This document shows, piece after piece, positions 29,018 to 60,202 of a stretch of 64,000 nt of DNA; within the stretch, counting starts at the first letter, position 1; each line of letters starts with the position of its first letter. The stretch is from Treponema sp. (GTDB lineage Bacteria; Spirochaetota; Spirochaetia; Treponematales; Treponemataceae): NCBI GenBank assembly GCA_016293915.1, contig JAEDCY010000008.1, positions 2,403 through 66,402 on the forward strand. The letters run 5' to 3'. Under the pieces are notes generated by a model. That model made no database searches, had not been told where the DNA came from, and was given only the letters and a program-made list of their open reading frames with translations. The translations under genes were made by a program, and so were the position numbers.

Positions 29018-29148
29018 ATGCTGAAACATAGGGAGCGCCCCTGCTATGCAGGGGAAAAATAGTCCAGTGGACAATTTTTAGCGAGTCTCCGAGTAGCTGT
29101 GCTGCGAAGGTTCAGCAGGACATGTCACCCTGAACTTGTTTCAGGGTC
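29018..29148 (+). repeat. Family B nested structured repeat (copy b) plus a flanking family A hairpin
   Basis: gatgctgaaac-ATAGGGAGCG...TTTTTAGCGAGTCTCCGAGTAGCTGTGCTGCGA-aggttcagcaggac, then gtcaCCCtgaacttgtttcaGGGtc (29124-29148). Homologous to 55305-55436 and, inverted, to 56020-56124. Confidence 0.8.
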
Positions 29149-44361: not shown

Positions 44362-44439
44362 GGGGCGTTGCGGGGTGTCCCCGCAGGGTGGGTAGCGAGC
44401 AACGAAGTGCGAGCGTAGGGCGGGGCTCCGCCCTCCTTA
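44362..44439. repeat. GC-rich repeat (family D-related) ending in hairpin agggcgg-ggct-ccgccct
   Basis: Shares ggggcgttg.gggg.tgt.ccc.gca and an exact 27-mer gcgtagggcggggctccgccctcctta with 57885-58022. The last 3 nt are the stop codon of the FAD-subunit gene. Confidence 0.75.
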
Positions 44440-53129: not shown

Positions 53130-53145
53130 TCAGATAAACCAAAAG

Positions 53146-53236
53146 GGCTGTCCAAAAAGTATTGTCATGCTGAACTTGTTTCAGCATCTACACCACATCT
53201 AGTTCTATAGATTCCGAAACAAGTTCGGAATGACAC
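53146..53236. repeat. Family A double-hairpin repeat, long form (copy c)
   Basis: A 91-nt block with 2 mismatches to 56197-56287. Hairpins are gtcatGCTgaacttgtttcAGCatc (53165-53189) and gatTCCgaaacaagttcGGAatgac (53211-53235). Confidence 0.85.
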
Positions 53237-55304: not shown

Positions 55305-55436
55305 GATCCCGAAACATAGGGAGCGGCGGCTGAAAGCCGACAAAATGCTCCAGTGGAGCATTTTTAGCGAGTCTCCGAGCAGCTGTGCTGCGACGGGTTC
55401 GGGATGACCATGTCATGCTGAACTAGTTTCAGCATC
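55305..55436 (+). repeat. Family B nested structured repeat (copy d) plus a family A hairpin
   Basis: gatcccgaaac-ATAGGGAGCGG...TTTTTAGCGAGTCTCCGAGCAGCTGTGCTGCGA-cgggttcgggatgac, then gtcatgctgaactagtttcagcatc (55412-55436). Confidence 0.85.
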
Positions 55437-55559: not shown

Positions 55560-55737
55560 ATATAAATCAGAAAAAAGATATGGACAATAATAAACTTTTA
55601 GAATAATATGTTTAAATCTGTTTTACGGATTACATTGTGATTTGTTTCTAGAAACCCAGAGACCGACCTGCAAGGTTTTCCGCCCATACAGAGTTTCCGG
55701 CCTGGCTGGAAATCATAATTTTTCTAGGGGTTCCAAT

Positions 55738-56007
55738 ATGGCACTTACAAAAGAAACAACAGCCGCAACAGTAAAGAAGTACGGCGCAAAAGACACTGAC
55801 ACAGGTAGTGTAAAGGTTCAGATTGCTCTTATGACACAGCGTGTTGAACAGCTCACAGAGCACAACAAGCTCTTCCCAAAGGATGCTAACGCTAAACGTG
55901 CACTTCTTAAGGTTGTAGGTCAGCGCCGCAAGATGCTCCGCTACTTTGAACGCACAGACCTCGAAGGTTACCGCGCATTCATTAAAGAGCTCGGACTCAG
56001 AAAATAG
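55738..56007 (+). CDS. rpsO: 30S ribosomal protein S15
   Basis: MALTKETTAATVKKYGAKDTDTGSVKVQIALMTQRVEQLTEH...RRKMLRYF, 89 aa. The track ORF start at 55642 is an upstream extension. Confidence 0.95.
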   Translation: MALTKETTAATVKKYGAKDTDTGSVKVQIALMTQRVEQLTEHNKLFPKDANAKRALLKVVGQRRKMLRYFERTDLEGYRAFIKELGLRK

Positions 56008-56019
56008 TCTTGCTTTGTT

Positions 56020-56124
56020 GTCATCCCGAACCATCGCAGCATAGCTGCTCGGAGACTCGCTAAAAACAGTCCACAGGACTGTTTTTGCCCTGCTACGCAG
56101 TGCCGCTCCCTATGTTTCGGGATC
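56020..56124 (-). repeat. Family B nested structured repeat (copy e, inverted)
   Basis: The reverse complement reads gatcccgaaac-ATAGGGAGCGGCACTGCGTAGCAGGGCAAAAACAGTCCTGTGGACTGTTTTTAGCGAGTCTCCGAGCAGCTATGCTGCGA-tggttcgggatgac. Confidence 0.85.
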
Positions 56125-56127
56125 TCA

Positions 56128-56166
56128 AAATCCCGCCAGCCATCGCGCCGTGCGGGATTTTTTTTT
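56128..56166 (+). terminator. rho-independent terminator after rpsO (T1)
   Basis: The stem atcccgc...gcgggat is followed by T9. Confidence 0.7.
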
Positions 56167-56196
56167 GCCCGGCGCAAATTCATTACCATGAATTTG

Positions 56197-56287
56197 GGGC
56201 TGTCCAAAAAGTATTGTCATGCTGAACTTGTTTCAGCATCTACGCCACATCTAGTTCTATAGATTCCGAAATAAGTTCGGAATGACA
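56197..56287. repeat. Family A double-hairpin repeat, long form (copy f)
   Basis: See 53146-53236. The two copies share 89 of 91 nt. Confidence 0.85.
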
Positions 56288-56472
56288 AGTGTGTTTGCTG
56301 CGGAAGGAAAAAAGATTGGAGATTTTTAAACTCTTTATCCTGATTCTGAAGTAACTTATACTTTTAATATTAATAATAAGTCGACTGGTGGGGCTTCGGC
56401 TGGATAAACGAAAACGGCTCAACTAAGAAAATGACAAAGATTAAGAAGTTTTAATCTTATCAGAGAATGAAG

Positions 56473-56511
56473 AAACTCCCGCGCAGCCAGGTGCCGTGCG
56501 GGAGTTTTTTT
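56473..56511. terminator. rho-independent terminator T2 (paralogue of T1), at the 3' end of the minus-strand gene
   Basis: The stem ctcccgc...gcgggag is followed by T7 on the plus strand. About 85 percent identical to T1, with a compensated outer base pair. Confidence 0.6.
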
Positions 56512-56516
56512 ATATA

Positions 56517-57365
56517 TTACAATAAGAATTCTTCGATAAGTTTTTCAAGAGCCTTAATGGAAGGCGGCTCGGTCTGTGTTTCCATGGTGATGATGAGATT
56601 GCGGCCGGCGAGAATTCCGTTTTCGGTGTAGAGGCGGAGCTTGCCGGCCGCATTGTTTGAGTATTCGGTGGAGTCCATGAGGCCAAAGTGTTCCCAGTAG
56701 AACTCTGTACGGGTGCGCGTGTTGAGGCAGAGGAAGTCGGGGTAGAGGGTGATGGATCTGCCGAAGTCGCGTCGAATGTCGTCAGGGTTGATGCGCTTCA
56801 GTGTAATCGGGAATTCGTAACGATAAGGTATGTTGTGGCGGAAAAGTGTATCTGCGATTATTACTTCGGATTTTGAGCGCACCCGTTCGCCACGGGCAGT
56901 ACAGATGTAAGGTGCATCTGACGCGAAGGGCCGGCCCGTCCAGGAAATATCCTGCCAGCGGGCCGCGTACTGCTCGTTTGTGAGAATTGCAGGAGTAATG
57001 AGGCTGCGACGGGCCGGGCAAAGGGAATCGTAGAGTTCAGAAATGGCGCGTCCATTGCTTGTCTGTTTCATGTAATTTTGAAGGGCGGAGATTTCTTTTT
57101 GCAGCAGTTTAATAAGGCGGGCGTCGTAGTCTTTTTGTGCCAGCTGGCGGGCAAGAGTTTTCTGTGAGTGGGGAAGATATTTTCCTCTTAAACTGCCGCG
57201 TTCCGTTACAAGATAATACTCCGGGTGCCCGCCATTTTGAGAAATTCGGATGCGCCCCTGAGGTGCTTTTTCATAAGACTTCTTTTTGGTGAAAAGCAAG
57301 TTTTGAAGCTCTGCGAGCCGCTTTTCTATCAGGGGCGCAAGCTGATTTAGGGATAATTCTTCCAT
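56517..57365 (-). CDS. hypothetical protein, PD-(D/E)XK-type nuclease-like C-terminal half (TnsA/Vsr-like); GC-rich orphan
   Basis: 282-aa ORF with the RBS aaggag. The N half is coiled-coil-like. The C half reads RSKSEVIIADTLFRHNIPYRYEF...ITLYPDFLCLN...EFYWEHFGLMD (E ... PDF ... E-x-F spacing). It is visibly higher in GC than the flanking DNA. Confidence 0.55.
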   Translation of the reverse strand: MEELSLNQLAPLIEKRLAELQNLLFTKKKSYEKAPQGRIRISQNGGHPEYYLVTERGSLRGKYLPHSQKTLARQLAQKDYDARLIKLLQKEISALQNYMKQTSNGRAISELYDSLCPARRSLITPAILTNEQYAARWQDISWTGRPFASDAPYICTARGERVRSKSEVIIADTLFRHNIPYRYEFPITLKRINPDDIRRDFGRSITLYPDFLCLNTRTRTEFYWEHFGLMDSTEYSNNAAGKLRLYTENGILAGRNLIITMETQTEPPSIKALEKLIEEFLL

Positions 57366-57411
57366 TTTTTACTCCTTCGGGCTCTTTTGGAGCTTGATTT
57401 TTGTTTTTGTT

Positions 57412-57699
57412 CCGACTTAACGGTGGCTTTACCTTGTTAAGTCGGGCGATTTGGAGATTTTTTAGCTGTGAGTTCGTCTTTTATTGTAGTGATGGCCGAC
57501 TTAACGCGGTGGTTTTTAAAGTTAAGTCGGCCACAATCAGTGTTTTTGGCTGTAGGCGAGCATCTTTTTCCCAGTTTATCTTCTGCTGTGGCCGACTTAA
57601 CACAGAAAAATTGCAGTTAAGTCGGCTCTTTTCCAGTTTTTCGAAGCGTTGCCGCTGAAATAACTCCGACTTAACGGCAGAACTGACTTGTTAAGTCGG
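57412..57699. repeat. tandem array of four hairpins with conserved stem CCGACTTAAC / GTTAAGTCGG
   Basis: The hairpins lie at 57412-57445, 57494-57532, 57590-57626 and 57666-57699. Stems of 10-12 bp are perfect, and the 14-15 nt loops differ. Confidence 0.85.
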
Positions 57700-57884
57700 T
57701 AAATAAGAGTCTTCGCCGCACAATAAGAAATCTCCACATGTAATATAGACACGAATTACATATTTTTGACAAAATTCGAGGATTTTTTGTGCTTTTTTTA
57801 CTGATTTCTTCCATTGATTATTATGTATTTATGGATTAAAATTAATTATTATATTTTTTTATGAGCCGGCGCGCACGGGGAATT

Positions 57885-58022
57885 GGGGCGTTGTGGGGTT
57901 GTTCCCTGCAAATGGTGCGATGTCTTTTTGTTTTTCTGGCTGGCGATGATTTACCCCACTGGGTGGGGTAGCCGAAAACACCGAAGGTGGTTGAGGCGTA
58001 GGGCGGGGCTCCGCCCTCCTTA
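57885..58022. repeat. GC-rich repeat (family D-related), longer copy
   Basis: Colinear with 44362-44439 apart from an internal insertion of about 45 nt. It has the identical 27-mer at 57996-58022. Confidence 0.75.
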
Positions 58023-58096
58023 AATAAGTATATTAGTTTTACTAATAAATAGAAAAAAACACGCGTCGGATGTAGTGACGTGTGTAGGAGAAAATT

Positions 58097-60202
58097 ATGT
58101 CTGTAGAAAGAGTAACCTACAAACTTGGAGATGCCGATCTCATCCTGGAAACTGGAAAAATCGGTAAACAGGCTAATGGATGTGTTTACGCTCAGTGGGG
58201 CGGAGCCGCTATTATTGCAACTATTTGTGCTTCGTCTAGCGTAACAGAAGGTCAGGATTTTGTGCCTGTAACTGTTGAGTACAACGAAAAATTCTATGCT
58301 GCCGGAAAGATTCCTGGCGGTTTTGTTAAGCGCGAAGGTCGTCCAAAGGACAAGGAGATTTTGGTATCTCGTCTTATTGACCGCCCAATGCGTCCGCTTT
58401 TTGAGCCATCTTTTGGTCACGAACTTCAGATTGTTCCAACTTGTGTTTCTTGCGATGGCGTTCATACTCAGGATATTCTTGCCGTAATCGCAGCTTCTGC
58501 TGCAACTTGTATTTCTGATATTCCATTCCACGGTCCGGTTGCTGCCTGCCGCGTTGGATATTTGAACGGTGAATATATTATCAACCCAACTTTCGAACAG
58601 ATTGAAAAGGGCGAACTTGAAATCGTTGTTGCCGGAACTAAAGACGGCTTTACAATGGTAGAAGGTGGTGCTAACGAAGTTTCAGAGGAATTGATGCTCG
58701 GAGCTTTGGAGCGCGCTCAGAAGTTCATTACTGATATGTGTCTTTTGCAGGAAGAACTTGTAAAGAAGGCTGGTAAGGAAAAGCTTCCTTTGAATCCTCT
58801 TGATGTAACTTTGGACAACGCTGAAGCCATCGAAGCTGAAGCAACTCCACTTTTGAAAGAAGCCTGCTTCAAAGACAGCAAAATCAGCCGTGGTAAGGCA
58901 ATTTCTCAGGTTCAGAGAGACCTGGCTGCAAAATATGCTGAACAGCTTTCTGACCCGATTCAGGCTAAGCTTTTCTGTGCTTTGATGGATGACATTCAGT
59001 ACAAGCTCCTCCGCAAGTCTATTCTTGATGAAGGCGTTCGTGTAGATGGCCGTAAGGTTGACGAAATCCGTCCAATCACCTGCGAAGTAAACGTATTACC
59101 AACTCCACACGGATCGGCACTCTTCACTCGTGGTGAAACTCAGTCTCTTGCTGTATGTACTCTTGGTACTGCTATGGACGAACAGTCTTATGATGATATT
59201 GATGGAGACAGAAGCGAGCACTTTATCCTCCACTATAACTTCCCGCCATACTCAGTTGGTGAAACTGGTAAGCTTACAACTGGCCGCCGCGAAATTGGTC
59301 ACGGTAATCTTGCCCGCCGTTCCCTTGCTGCAATGGTTCCAAGCCGCGAAGAGTTCCCATACACAATCCGCGTTGTTTCTGAAATCATGGAATCTAACGG
59401 TTCTTCATCTCAGGCTTCTACCTGTGGTGGTACTCTTTGTATGCTGGCTGCCGGTGTTCCAATGAAGAAGATGGTTGCCGGTATTGCTATGGGTCTTATC
59501 ACAGAACCAGAGGGAGACAATCCTTATGGCCGCTATAAGATTTTGAGCGATATCCTTGGTGAAGAAGACCACCTTGGCGATATGGACTTTAAGGTAGCCG
59601 GAACAAAAGACGGTATTACAGGCTTCCAGATGGATATTAAGATTGCCGGTGTAACAACAGAAATCATGAAGAAGGCTATGGAACAGGCTCGTCAGGGTCG
59701 TCTCCACATCCTTTCTATTATGGAAAAATGCATTGACAAGCCGGCTCCACTTGCTAAGAACGCTCCACAGATTCTCACAATGAAGATTCCTGTAGACAAG
59801 ATTGGCGCCCTCATTGGACCTGGCGGAAAGAATGTTAAGGCCCTCTGCTCTCAGTATGATGTAACAATCAACACTGAAGACGACGGAACTGTAACAATCT
59901 ACTCTAAGAACGGCTTGAATGCTGAGGCTGCTAAGAAGGCTGTTAAGGGCATTACAGAAGACCCAGAGGTTGGAACAATCTATCAGGGAACTGTAAAGCG
60001 CATTATGGACTTTGGTGCCTTCGTAGAAATCCTTCCTGGAAAAGAAGGACTCTGCCACATTTCAAAGCTTTCAAAACAGCGCGTAAACAAGGTAACTGAT
60101 GTTCTTACAGAAGGTCAGGTAATTCCTGTTAAGCTTCTCGAAGTAGACAAGCAGGGAAGATTGAACCTCAGCTACATCGACGCTTTGGATGAACAGAAAT
60201 AA
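58097..60202 (+). CDS. pnp: polyribonucleotide nucleotidyltransferase (PNPase)
   Basis: 701 aa with two RNase PH domains, KH (IGALIGPGGKNVK) and S1 (GTVKRIMDFGAFVEILPGKEGLCHISKL). Confidence 0.97.
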   Translation: MSVERVTYKLGDADLILETGKIGKQANGCVYAQWGGAAIIATICASSSVTEGQDFVPVTVEYNEKFYAAGKIPGGFVKREGRPKDKEILVSRLIDRPMRPLFEPSFGHELQIVPTCVSCDGVHTQDILAVIAASAATCISDIPFHGPVAACRVGYLNGEYIINPTFEQIEKGELEIVVAGTKDGFTMVEGGANEVSEELMLGALERAQKFITDMCLLQEELVKKAGKEKLPLNPLDVTLDNAEAIEAEATPLLKEACFKDSKISRGKAISQVQRDLAAKYAEQLSDPIQAKLFCALMDDIQYKLLRKSILDEGVRVDGRKVDEIRPITCEVNVLPTPHGSALFTRGETQSLAVCTLGTAMDEQSYDDIDGDRSEHFILHYNFPPYSVGETGKLTTGRREIGHGNLARRSLAAMVPSREEFPYTIRVVSEIMESNGSSSQASTCGGTLCMLAAGVPMKKMVAGIAMGLITEPEGDNPYGRYKILSDILGEEDHLGDMDFKVAGTKDGITGFQMDIKIAGVTTEIMKKAMEQARQGRLHILSIMEKCIDKPAPLAKNAPQILTMKIPVDKIGALIGPGGKNVKALCSQYDVTINTEDDGTVTIYSKNGLNAEAAKKAVKGITEDPEVGTIYQGTVKRIMDFGAFVEILPGKEGLCHISKLSKQRVNKVTDVLTEGQVIPVKLLEVDKQGRLNLSYIDALDEQK

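Follow-up and report, generated by a model that had tools for sequence, protein, structure and literature searches.

The spacer between rpsO and pnp in a Treponema sp. genome (contig JAEDCY010000008.1) was analyzed within a 64,000-nucleotide stretch of that contig, which is referred to here as the window. This spacer holds a minus-strand gene for a protein of 282 amino acids (aa) and, directly 5' of it, an array of four palindromes. Gene and array are read here as one stand-alone module, a sequence-specific DNA-binding nuclease that would be carried together with its own cis-acting array, and we put the probability of this reading at roughly 60%.

Four exact copies of CCGACTTAAC-N14/15-GTTAAGTCGG make up the array, at 57412-57445, 57496-57530, 57592-57625, and 57666-57699, with centre-to-centre spacings of 84.5, 95.5, and 74 bp from site 1 to site 4. 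None was expected by chance (100 shuffles), and the motif has no other occurrence in the window. The offset from the centre of site 1 to the ATG is 61.5 to 64.5 nt in sister lineages. The centre itself (14 to 15 nt) exists in at least four alleles among strains that are otherwise 96 to 99% identical.

The association of gene and array was assessed at 80 loci of distant homologues (34 to 55% identity) from Treponema, Fibrobacter, Lachnospiraceae, other Clostridia, and Desulfovibrio. An array was scored where at least two perfect palindromes with the same arm lay beside the gene, and windows from the same loci served as controls. Arrays of at least two sites were found at 48 of the 80 homologue loci versus 2 of 119 control windows, and arrays of at least three sites at 36 of 80 versus 1 of 119. 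The arm sequence is specific to the locus (TACGGCTAAAA, TAGGACTAAAC, GGCGGTGAAAT, and GGGGCGTATAAA, among others). Most arrays lie 40 to 460 bp 5' of the start codon, and at about eight loci the array is found just 3' of the stop codon. The 282-aa gene appears to have a conserved, cognate partner in its array.

Moreover, at one locus a change in the protein goes along with a change in the site. Strain L119 has an identical ribosomal protein S15 and flanks that are 98 to 99% identical to those of the window, with a different allele in between. Homology between the two breaks at 56164 and 57807, which sets the limits of a variable cassette, and inside it only 77% identity is left, in two patches. 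The L119 protein has 284 aa and is 65% identical overall to that of the window, with identities by segment of 45% (aa 1-33), 34% (aa 34-65), 62% (aa 66-110), 73% (aa 111-155), and 76% (aa 156-282), and its array has six GACCTACAAAA-N16-18-TTTTGTAGGTC sites, 74 to 85 bp apart. Alleles at 76 to 86% identity keep the CCGACTTAAC arms, and in the two of these that were measured (L088 and L090) aa 34-65 is the best-conserved segment, at 97% identity. L120 (54% identical) has the motif GHLRIAQR-GR-QFYHYT of the hairpin in common with L119, and its five CGACCTACAAG sites follow one another at exactly 74 bp. The more distant L015 and L023 carry GHLRIA..QFY, and CCTACA sites are found in all three. From this allele comparison we infer that the tip of a β-hairpin (aa 34-65) probably sets the site specificity. 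In strain L116 (5542-6219), the family gene is broken into open reading frames (ORFs) of 141 and 62 aa, and all four palindromes are intact.

The protein family and its predicted fold

An exhaustive search placed the 282-aa protein in a family of 5,608 clusters at 50% identity (E ≤ 1e-3), nearly all of 260 to 300 aa and matched over their full length. The hosts are gut and rumen Treponema, Fibrobacter, Clostridia (including Lachnospiraceae), and Desulfovibrio. The family is spread across phyla with several copies per genome, those of the same genome being about 40% identical, and all named members are annotated as "hypothetical protein". Neither the protein alone nor a 30-member profile gave a usable match in sequence searches of Pfam, NCBIfam, PHROGs, and the PDB. 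PADLOC matched aa 155-281 to the C terminus of the 1,221-aa defence candidate PDC-S68 (E 3.7e-23), and a homologous C domain also ends plasmid proteins of the "AAA ATPase / RecD-like helicase" kind. No description of this family was found in the literature, searched also for PDC-S68 and for protein accessions, in a library that was itself incomplete.

AlphaFold2 modelled the full-length protein with a predicted local distance difference test (pLDDT) score of 93.7, the same as for the C domain modelled separately. In the model, a β-hairpin (aa 38-53) joins two long helices that run antiparallel (aa 9-33 and 66-101), and an α/β domain follows. Its matches in Foldseek are almost all PD-(D/E)XK nucleases (MunI, the AddAB nuclease, TnsA, RecU, NucS, XisH, Card1, cap-snatching endonucleases, T7 endonuclease I-like proteins, and Holliday junction resolvases). 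The matches in BFVD were to endonuclease I, TnsA_N, DUF559, and restriction enzymes, eight of them at E ≤ 1e-3. The α/β core of the PD-(D/E)XK fold is present in the model, with modest scores.

The residues that are invariant in the family cluster in the C half, in the blocks VRSKSE, PYRYE-P, YPDF, and WEHFG. They are R163, S164, K165, E167, Y183, E184, P209, D210, F211, W224, E225, and H226, to which the alignment adds G228, Y235, K242, and E262. Among them E167, D210, and E225 stand at the candidate active site, where the position two residues after E225 is F227. The model supports the assignment of the C half to the PD-(D/E)XK fold at the superfamily level. The initial annotation of this DNA, made from the sequence alone, had proposed just such a protein, with a coiled-coil-like N half and a PD-(D/E)XK C half, and the confident model, the Foldseek matches, and the invariant E167, PD210, and E225 agree with it. 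The check it had suggested, by profile and structure searches, returned no Pfam or NCBIfam match and yet a nuclease fold. The term "orphan", which it had applied to the gene, does not survive the count of clusters.

Probable duplex DNA sites and competing explanations

Across loci, the centres of neighbouring sites are 53, 64, 74, 84 to 85, 95, or 105 to 106 bp apart. The best-fit period of these distances is 10.5 bp, with a Rayleigh R of 0.82 for 79 per-locus spacings versus a maximum of 0.42 in 2,000 simulations. In a sister lineage one spacer is shorter by 21 bp, which is two helical turns, and one strain has gained a 74-bp unit. Aligned at the dyad, the arrays all follow the frame T(-19) R(-18) C(-17) N5 AAA(-11 to -9), and the central ~16 bp of the sites show no information content across arrays. 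The placement of site centres at multiples of 10.5 bp points to sites that act as double-stranded DNA, on one face of the helix, rather than as RNA hairpins.

The strongest alternative places the array at the RNA level, in the manner of type III toxin-antitoxin systems. The array would be co-transcribed with the gene, its hairpins would bind or inhibit a nuclease acting as an RNase, or be processed by it, and the toxin would be released once the labile RNA was lost. A promoter-like block is directed into the array, and its hexamers are kept in L087, L088, and L119 with a variable spacer between them; a strict scan did not pick up this block at 57742-57772. If transcribed, the array leader of ~340 nt folds far better than shuffled sequences (z = -6.2), the nuclease gene adjoins its cognate repeat array, the number of units differs between strains, and some RNases have the PD-(D/E)XK fold. 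However, the quantization of the spacings by 10.5 bp has no rationale in RNA, and conserved stems with free loops are the reverse of most RNA-protein recognition. The mismatches of imperfect arms (G.T 38 versus A.C 39) show no bias toward the G.U wobble pairs of RNA, Tandem Repeats Finder detected no tandem direct repeats in the array, Pfam and PADLOC gave no ToxN/AbiQ match, and the sense strand has no terminator between array and gene. We consider this explanation improbable. A use of the site centres ("loops") as guide sequences was also rejected: they have no match in the window within 1 mismatch, and in many arrays the centre is almost the same from one unit to the next.

When the window is compared with L088, at a synonymous divergence (dS) of 0.33, identity is 98% in the arms, 29% in the centres, and 62% in the spacers, and by this comparison the arms are under purifying selection. 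Between lineages the site centres are thus saturated despite a dS of only 0.33. Within arrays the centres are 65% and the spacers 52% identical, and a general hypermutability of the centres is unsupported there, being visible only between lineages of this species. A count of compensatory changes with 3 mismatches allowed was swamped by spurious AT-rich sites and was left unused. In the comparison lineage, whose polynucleotide phosphorylase (PNPase) is 98% identical, the gene has a dS of 0.33 and pnp one of 0.31. The ratio of nonsynonymous to synonymous divergence (dN/dS) is 0.25 to 0.55 for the 282-aa gene and 0.03 to 0.08 for pnp. These values indicate that the gene is functional, a long-standing resident of the locus, and faster evolving than its neighbours.

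This long residence, with a dS equal to that of pnp, bears on a second alternative, in which the array would be a site resembling an origin, a centromere, or a transposon end, and the protein would serve some replicon or mobile element, integrated or degenerate, as its initiator or processing enzyme. This alternative would fit with the constant adjacency of gene and cognate array, with the array on either side, the atypical composition of the gene, and the cross-phylum, multicopy distribution of the family. In addition, the phased dyad-symmetric sites lie by an AT-rich stretch (57800-57860), in a likeness to lambda O-ori and iteron origins. The array is, however, one-sided, with no second end and no target-site duplication, and the ~40% identity of same-genome copies shows that they are not products of recent transposition. 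No conserved partner gene was found beside the family across the 80 loci (no integrase, NTPase, Rep, methyltransferase, or cas gene). Full-length members are virtually absent from the 72,556 plasmids, 50,697 phage records, and 2.9 million viral contigs searched, which returned only fusions of the C domain, the sole full-length "phage" record being a bacterial fragment. This explanation is quite improbable.

A structure-specific enzyme was considered as well. In this case the palindromes would extrude as cruciforms, and a dimer resembling a junction resolvase would grip two hairpin arms and cut the four-way junction, producing programmed breaks. In its favour, the fold is matched by RecU, Holliday junction resolvases, and T7 endonuclease I-like proteins, the duplex sequence of a half-site is also the hairpin stem of the extruded form, and the centre of site 1 is highly variable between strains. 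Palindromes with short arms and long centres extrude poorly according to established DNA energetics, and those found here have arms of 10 to 13 bp and centres of 14 to 16 nt. Moreover, helical phasing favours B-form DNA, and the centres are in general no more variable than the spacers. Cruciform cutting is therefore, in our estimate, very improbable. Lastly, the presence of unrelated dispersed repeats and duplicated terminators in the same spacer might suggest that the hairpins are generic palindromes or terminators that lie beside the gene by chance, but this can practically be dismissed because of the association with homologues over controls and the co-variation of protein and site at one locus, along with the absence of the arms elsewhere in the window and the purifying selection on them.

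For the module of nuclease and cis-acting array, the following mechanism is proposed. A dimer would bind each palindrome of 34 to 40 bp on duplex DNA through two hairpin-tipped arms, the tips reading the variable 5 to 7 bp of each half-site, ~13 bp from the dyad, within the family frame T-R-C-N5-AAA. Dimers on one face of the helix would bind cooperatively. With the array placed between the promoter-like block and the start codon, its occupancy could throttle the expression of a potentially toxic enzyme and would also hold the enzyme on its home site. Because the active site is conserved, the enzyme may cut or nick DNA under some condition.

Several observations weigh against this mechanism. 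The structural matches are weak, the best in the PDB having E = 4e-3 and a template modelling (TM) score of at most 0.44, with TM scores of at most 0.5 overall. The (D/E)xK motif, here E225-H226-F227, lacks its canonical lysine; the invariant K165 or K242 might substitute for this residue, or its loss could mean that catalysis is unusual or that RNA is the substrate. The mutual information between residues and sites gives a weak signal at residues 38, 40, 42, 44, 49, and 60 in a map that is diffuse and confounded by phylogeny, and an analysis of group conservation is diffuse as well. No array was scored by the strict criteria at 32 of the 80 homologues, some of which have truncated flanks, and arrays 3' of the gene cannot act as simple promoter-proximal operators. 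Should the promoter-like block be genuine, transcription would turn the array into a strongly folding leader, and a role at the RNA level is possible. Finally, we infer binding, dimerization, and cleavage alike from sequence.

More speculatively, the module may be an accessory cassette, polymorphic and self-contained, with the character of a selfish or defence-like element. This is suggested by the two specificities at one locus, the broken copy with an intact array in L116, the paralogues, the atypical GC content, and the homology to PDC-S68; the near absence of full-length members from plasmids, phage records, and viral contigs runs counter to a mobile or viral origin. A still more specific version is tentative and, on balance, unlikely. 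The module would represent a new portable two-part class in which a specificity of ~20 bp is set by a short, swappable β-hairpin and carried along with its multicopy target, for example as a self-targeting kill switch or incompatibility device. The resting enzyme would occupy its phased home array silently and cooperatively; upon a trigger such as infection or lost regulation, the array would be cut and the host chromosome broken, and alleles of differing specificity would be maintained by frequency-dependent selection.

Thousands of clusters make up the family, which has neither a name nor a Pfam or NCBIfam model. Its hosts, gut and rumen bacteria, belong to no fewer than three or four phyla, and their genomes often carry several members each. 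If the proposed reading is right, the family would amount to a library, supplied by nature, of proteins in which a small β-hairpin on a coiled-coil arm reads long palindromic DNA sites. With the recognition sequence written beside each gene, hundreds of protein-site pairs could be read from genomes. The recognition code would be testable without experiments, and the proteins might be useful as orthogonal DNA binders or nucleases.

The rpsO-pnp spacer

The features of the region are collected in Table 1. From the rpsO stop (56007) to the pnp start (58097), the spacer measures 2089 nt. Its length and all of the features that the initial annotation had listed are present in the sequence, the weak point being the "GC-rich repeat" at 57885-58022, of which only 27 nt are actually repeated, at 44413-44439. 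The four-unit hairpin array is there too, although it appears to be a conserved, cognate counterpart of the gene rather than one item of a mosaic. The gene was rightly seen as richer in GC than its surroundings: at 50.7% versus a mean of 40.0%, it is the highest of the 38 long ORFs in the window, and it also has the highest GC content at third codon positions (57.1% versus a mean of 30.9%) and the second-largest codon-usage distance. The idea of a horizontally acquired cassette holds in part, the variable cassette, the atypical composition, and the plastic spacer speaking for it and the long residence against it. Ten distinct contexts with an identical S15 all hold the family gene between rpsO and pnp, and the empty site that had been suggested as a check was found in none of them. 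A free-standing homing endonuclease would be expected to cut such an empty allele and to be copied into it, so these 10 contexts also provide no vacant target for an enzyme of that kind.

Table 1. Features of the rpsO-pnp region, with positions in the window
Feature	Position	Strand	Basis or remark
rpsO (ribosomal protein S15, 89 aa)	55738-56007	+	ORF; left conserved flank; Pfam Ribosomal_S15 on identical products
Family B repeat	56020-56124	unstranded	Dispersed, MITE-like; outside the module
T1, terminator-like hairpin 3' of rpsO	56127-56165	unstranded	Homology with the L119 allele stops here
Variable cassette (family A repeat, filler, T2, gene, array, promoter-like block)	56165-57806	unstranded	Window-L119 alignment
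Segment missing in L005, ~345 bp (family A repeat, filler, T2)	56166-56510	unstranded	Alignment; bounded by the T1/T2 duplication
Family A repeat	56197-56287	unstranded	Within the variable cassette
T2, paralogous to T1, adjoining the 3' end of the 282-aa gene	56473-56511	unstranded	74% identity to T1
282-aa gene: coiled-coil arm and PD-(D/E)XK-like nuclease domain	56517-57365	-	ORF
C-terminal nuclease-like domain (aa 156-282)	56520-56900	-	Alignment, PADLOC, Foldseek
β-Hairpin tip of the coiled-coil arm (aa 34-65), putative DNA-specificity determinant	57171-57266	-	Allele comparison
Shine-Dalgarno-like AGGAG, six nt 5' of the ATG	57372-57376	-	Conserved in sister lineages
Site 1 (proximal), CCGACTTAAC-N14-GTTAAGTCGG	57412-57445	unstranded	Centre 63.5 nt from the ATG
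Site 2, TGGCCGACTTAAC-N15-GTTAAGTCGGCCA	57493-57533	unstranded	Centre 84.5 bp from that of site 1
Site 3, GCCGACTTAAC-N14-GTTAAGTCGGC	57591-57626	unstranded	Centre 95.5 bp from that of site 2
Site 4 (distal), CCGACTTAAC-N14-GTTAAGTCGG	57666-57699	unstranded	Centre 74 bp from that of site 3
Promoter-like block TTGTCA-N19-TATATT (or N17-TCTATA), reading into array and gene	57742-57772	-	Sequence comparison
GC-rich block 5' of pnp	57885-58022	unstranded	Outside the module
pnp (polynucleotide phosphorylase, 701 aa)	58097-60202	+	ORF; right conserved flank

Repeat families A and B are short, dispersed, and similar to miniature inverted-repeat transposable elements (MITEs), with copies beside other genes of the window and in L119. 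Within the window, family A has a 98% identical copy at 53145-53235 and three pieces of ~27 nt elsewhere, and family B has a copy at 29023-29113 (86%) and partial copies at 55305-55408. Strain L005 has a single terminator left, the ~345 bp of the T1-T2 interval being gone, and strains L002 and L006 have an extra insertion of 90 bp within the filler, which shows that the T1/T2 duplication bounds an indel. Since a convergent gene and two terminators part pnp from rpsO, pnp must use its own promoter.

By sequence comparison among related strains, the spacer is evidently a plasticity zone. Strains L117, L119, L087, and L088 have additional genes in it, for a transglutaminase-like protein of 624 aa and for unnamed ORFs of 265, 180, 274, 130, and 204 aa. 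Lineage L089 (PNPase 98% identical) has a shorter, different GC-rich block at the position of 57885-58022 with both flanks kept, and the GC-rich block upstream of pnp looks like another small hotspot of insertion or replacement. A hairpin at 58058-58084, immediately before the ribosome-binding site of pnp, differs between lineages by a single compensatory change (G-C to A-T) and may be a leader element of pnp. On contig L003 (7352-12151), a glutamate synthase gene instead of rpsO comes after the family gene, which reflects either a rearrangement or an assembly join at repeats. In the Rfam search, the ribosomal S15 leader was matched weakly ahead of rpsO (55689-55794; 22.5 bits, under the gathering score), with nothing else beyond noise.

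Comparison with known systems

TIGR-Tas systems have a Nop-domain protein and arrays in which box C/D motifs flank dual spacers of 8 to 12 nt, with palindromes that vary from unit to unit (PMC12045711). The resemblance lies in an array of palindromic units by a coiled-coil protein, sometimes a nuclease, with the array 5' or 3' of the gene (PMC12045711). In contrast, the arms described here are identical within an array, and neither a Nop match nor a box C/D motif was found; the assignment was rejected on the missing Nop match and an array architecture that differs from the definition (PMC12045711).

Other array-bearing elements were likewise discarded. The repeats here are inverted pairs at spacings of 74, 84, and 96 bp with no cas gene nearby, which is incompatible with CRISPR-Cas, where direct repeats alternate with unique spacers of one size. 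Integron attC sites have the core consensus RYYYAAC / GTTRRRY and are 55 to 140 nt long, with R''/L''-L'/R' boxes; they lie between gene cassettes and go with an IntI integrase. The arms ACTTAAC/GTTAAGT fit this core in the present lineage only, those of other family members being unrelated to it, and the sites are only 34 nt long, at intervals of 40 to 60 bp that hold no ORFs, with no integrase nearby. Repetitive extragenic palindromic (REP) elements, scattered genome-wide, with their associated tyrosine transposases (RAYT) of the HUH (Y1) type were excluded, the arms being confined to this array in the window and the protein not being an HUH enzyme.

Type III toxin-antitoxin systems (ToxIN, CptIN, and TenpIN) are similar in that a nuclease gene follows a cognate, probably co-transcribed array in a stand-alone, two-part, multicopy arrangement. 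Their toxins have a different fold, and their arrays are uninterrupted tandem direct repeats of 34 to 45 nt followed by a terminator, whereas the units found here are interspaced palindromes with the phasing of the DNA helix. The missing toxin match, tandem repeats, and sense-strand terminator led to the rejection of this class. Controller (C) proteins of restriction-modification type also have dyad-symmetric operators 5' of a nuclease gene and tightly autoregulate a toxic enzyme. They are, however, separate small helix-turn-helix regulators with 2 operators a few bp apart and a methyltransferase, none of which was found here.

In replication and partition systems, lambda O binds four dyad-symmetric repeats at ori, and ParR-parC and ParB-parS pair centromere-binding proteins with repeat arrays. 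The comparison is with a gene that adjoins a phased array of its own sites, with a cognate specificity that varies and an AT-rich stretch near. The sites described here differ in being palindromes of 34 to 40 bp placed 5 to 10 helical turns apart, compared with 1 to 2 turns in iterons and centromeres. The protein has the fold of a nuclease rather than a winged-helix, ribbon-helix-helix, or ParB domain, there is no partner ATPase, and the module is chromosomal and vertically inherited. An iteron-Rep or centromere system was rejected on these domains, partners, and spacings, the likeness being functional only.

The catalytic half was compared with known nucleases. TnsA, T7 endonuclease I, and the DUF559-Vsr nucleases have the same order of secondary structure (α, mixed β sheet, α, β) and the same motif pattern, S-x-x-E ... 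Y-E-x-P ... Y-P-D-F ... E-x-x-G. The 282-aa protein differs from them in having no sequence match in Pfam, NCBIfam, or the PDB, no (D/E)xK lysine, and a coiled-coil arm with a β-hairpin tip. Tn7-like transposition by a TnsA was rejected, with no TnsA_N match in Pfam, no TnsB or other conserved neighbour, and a one-sided array. PDC-S68 and the plasmid RecD-like helicases are homologous to aa 155-281 over their last ~120 residues, and they differ as helicase fusions of ~1,200 aa that do not have the coiled-coil arm. The layout of gene plus cis-array fits none of CRISPR, TIGR, type III toxin-antitoxin, iteron, or centromere systems, and the module as a whole matches no array-associated system tested, while its catalytic domain is that of a known superfamily.

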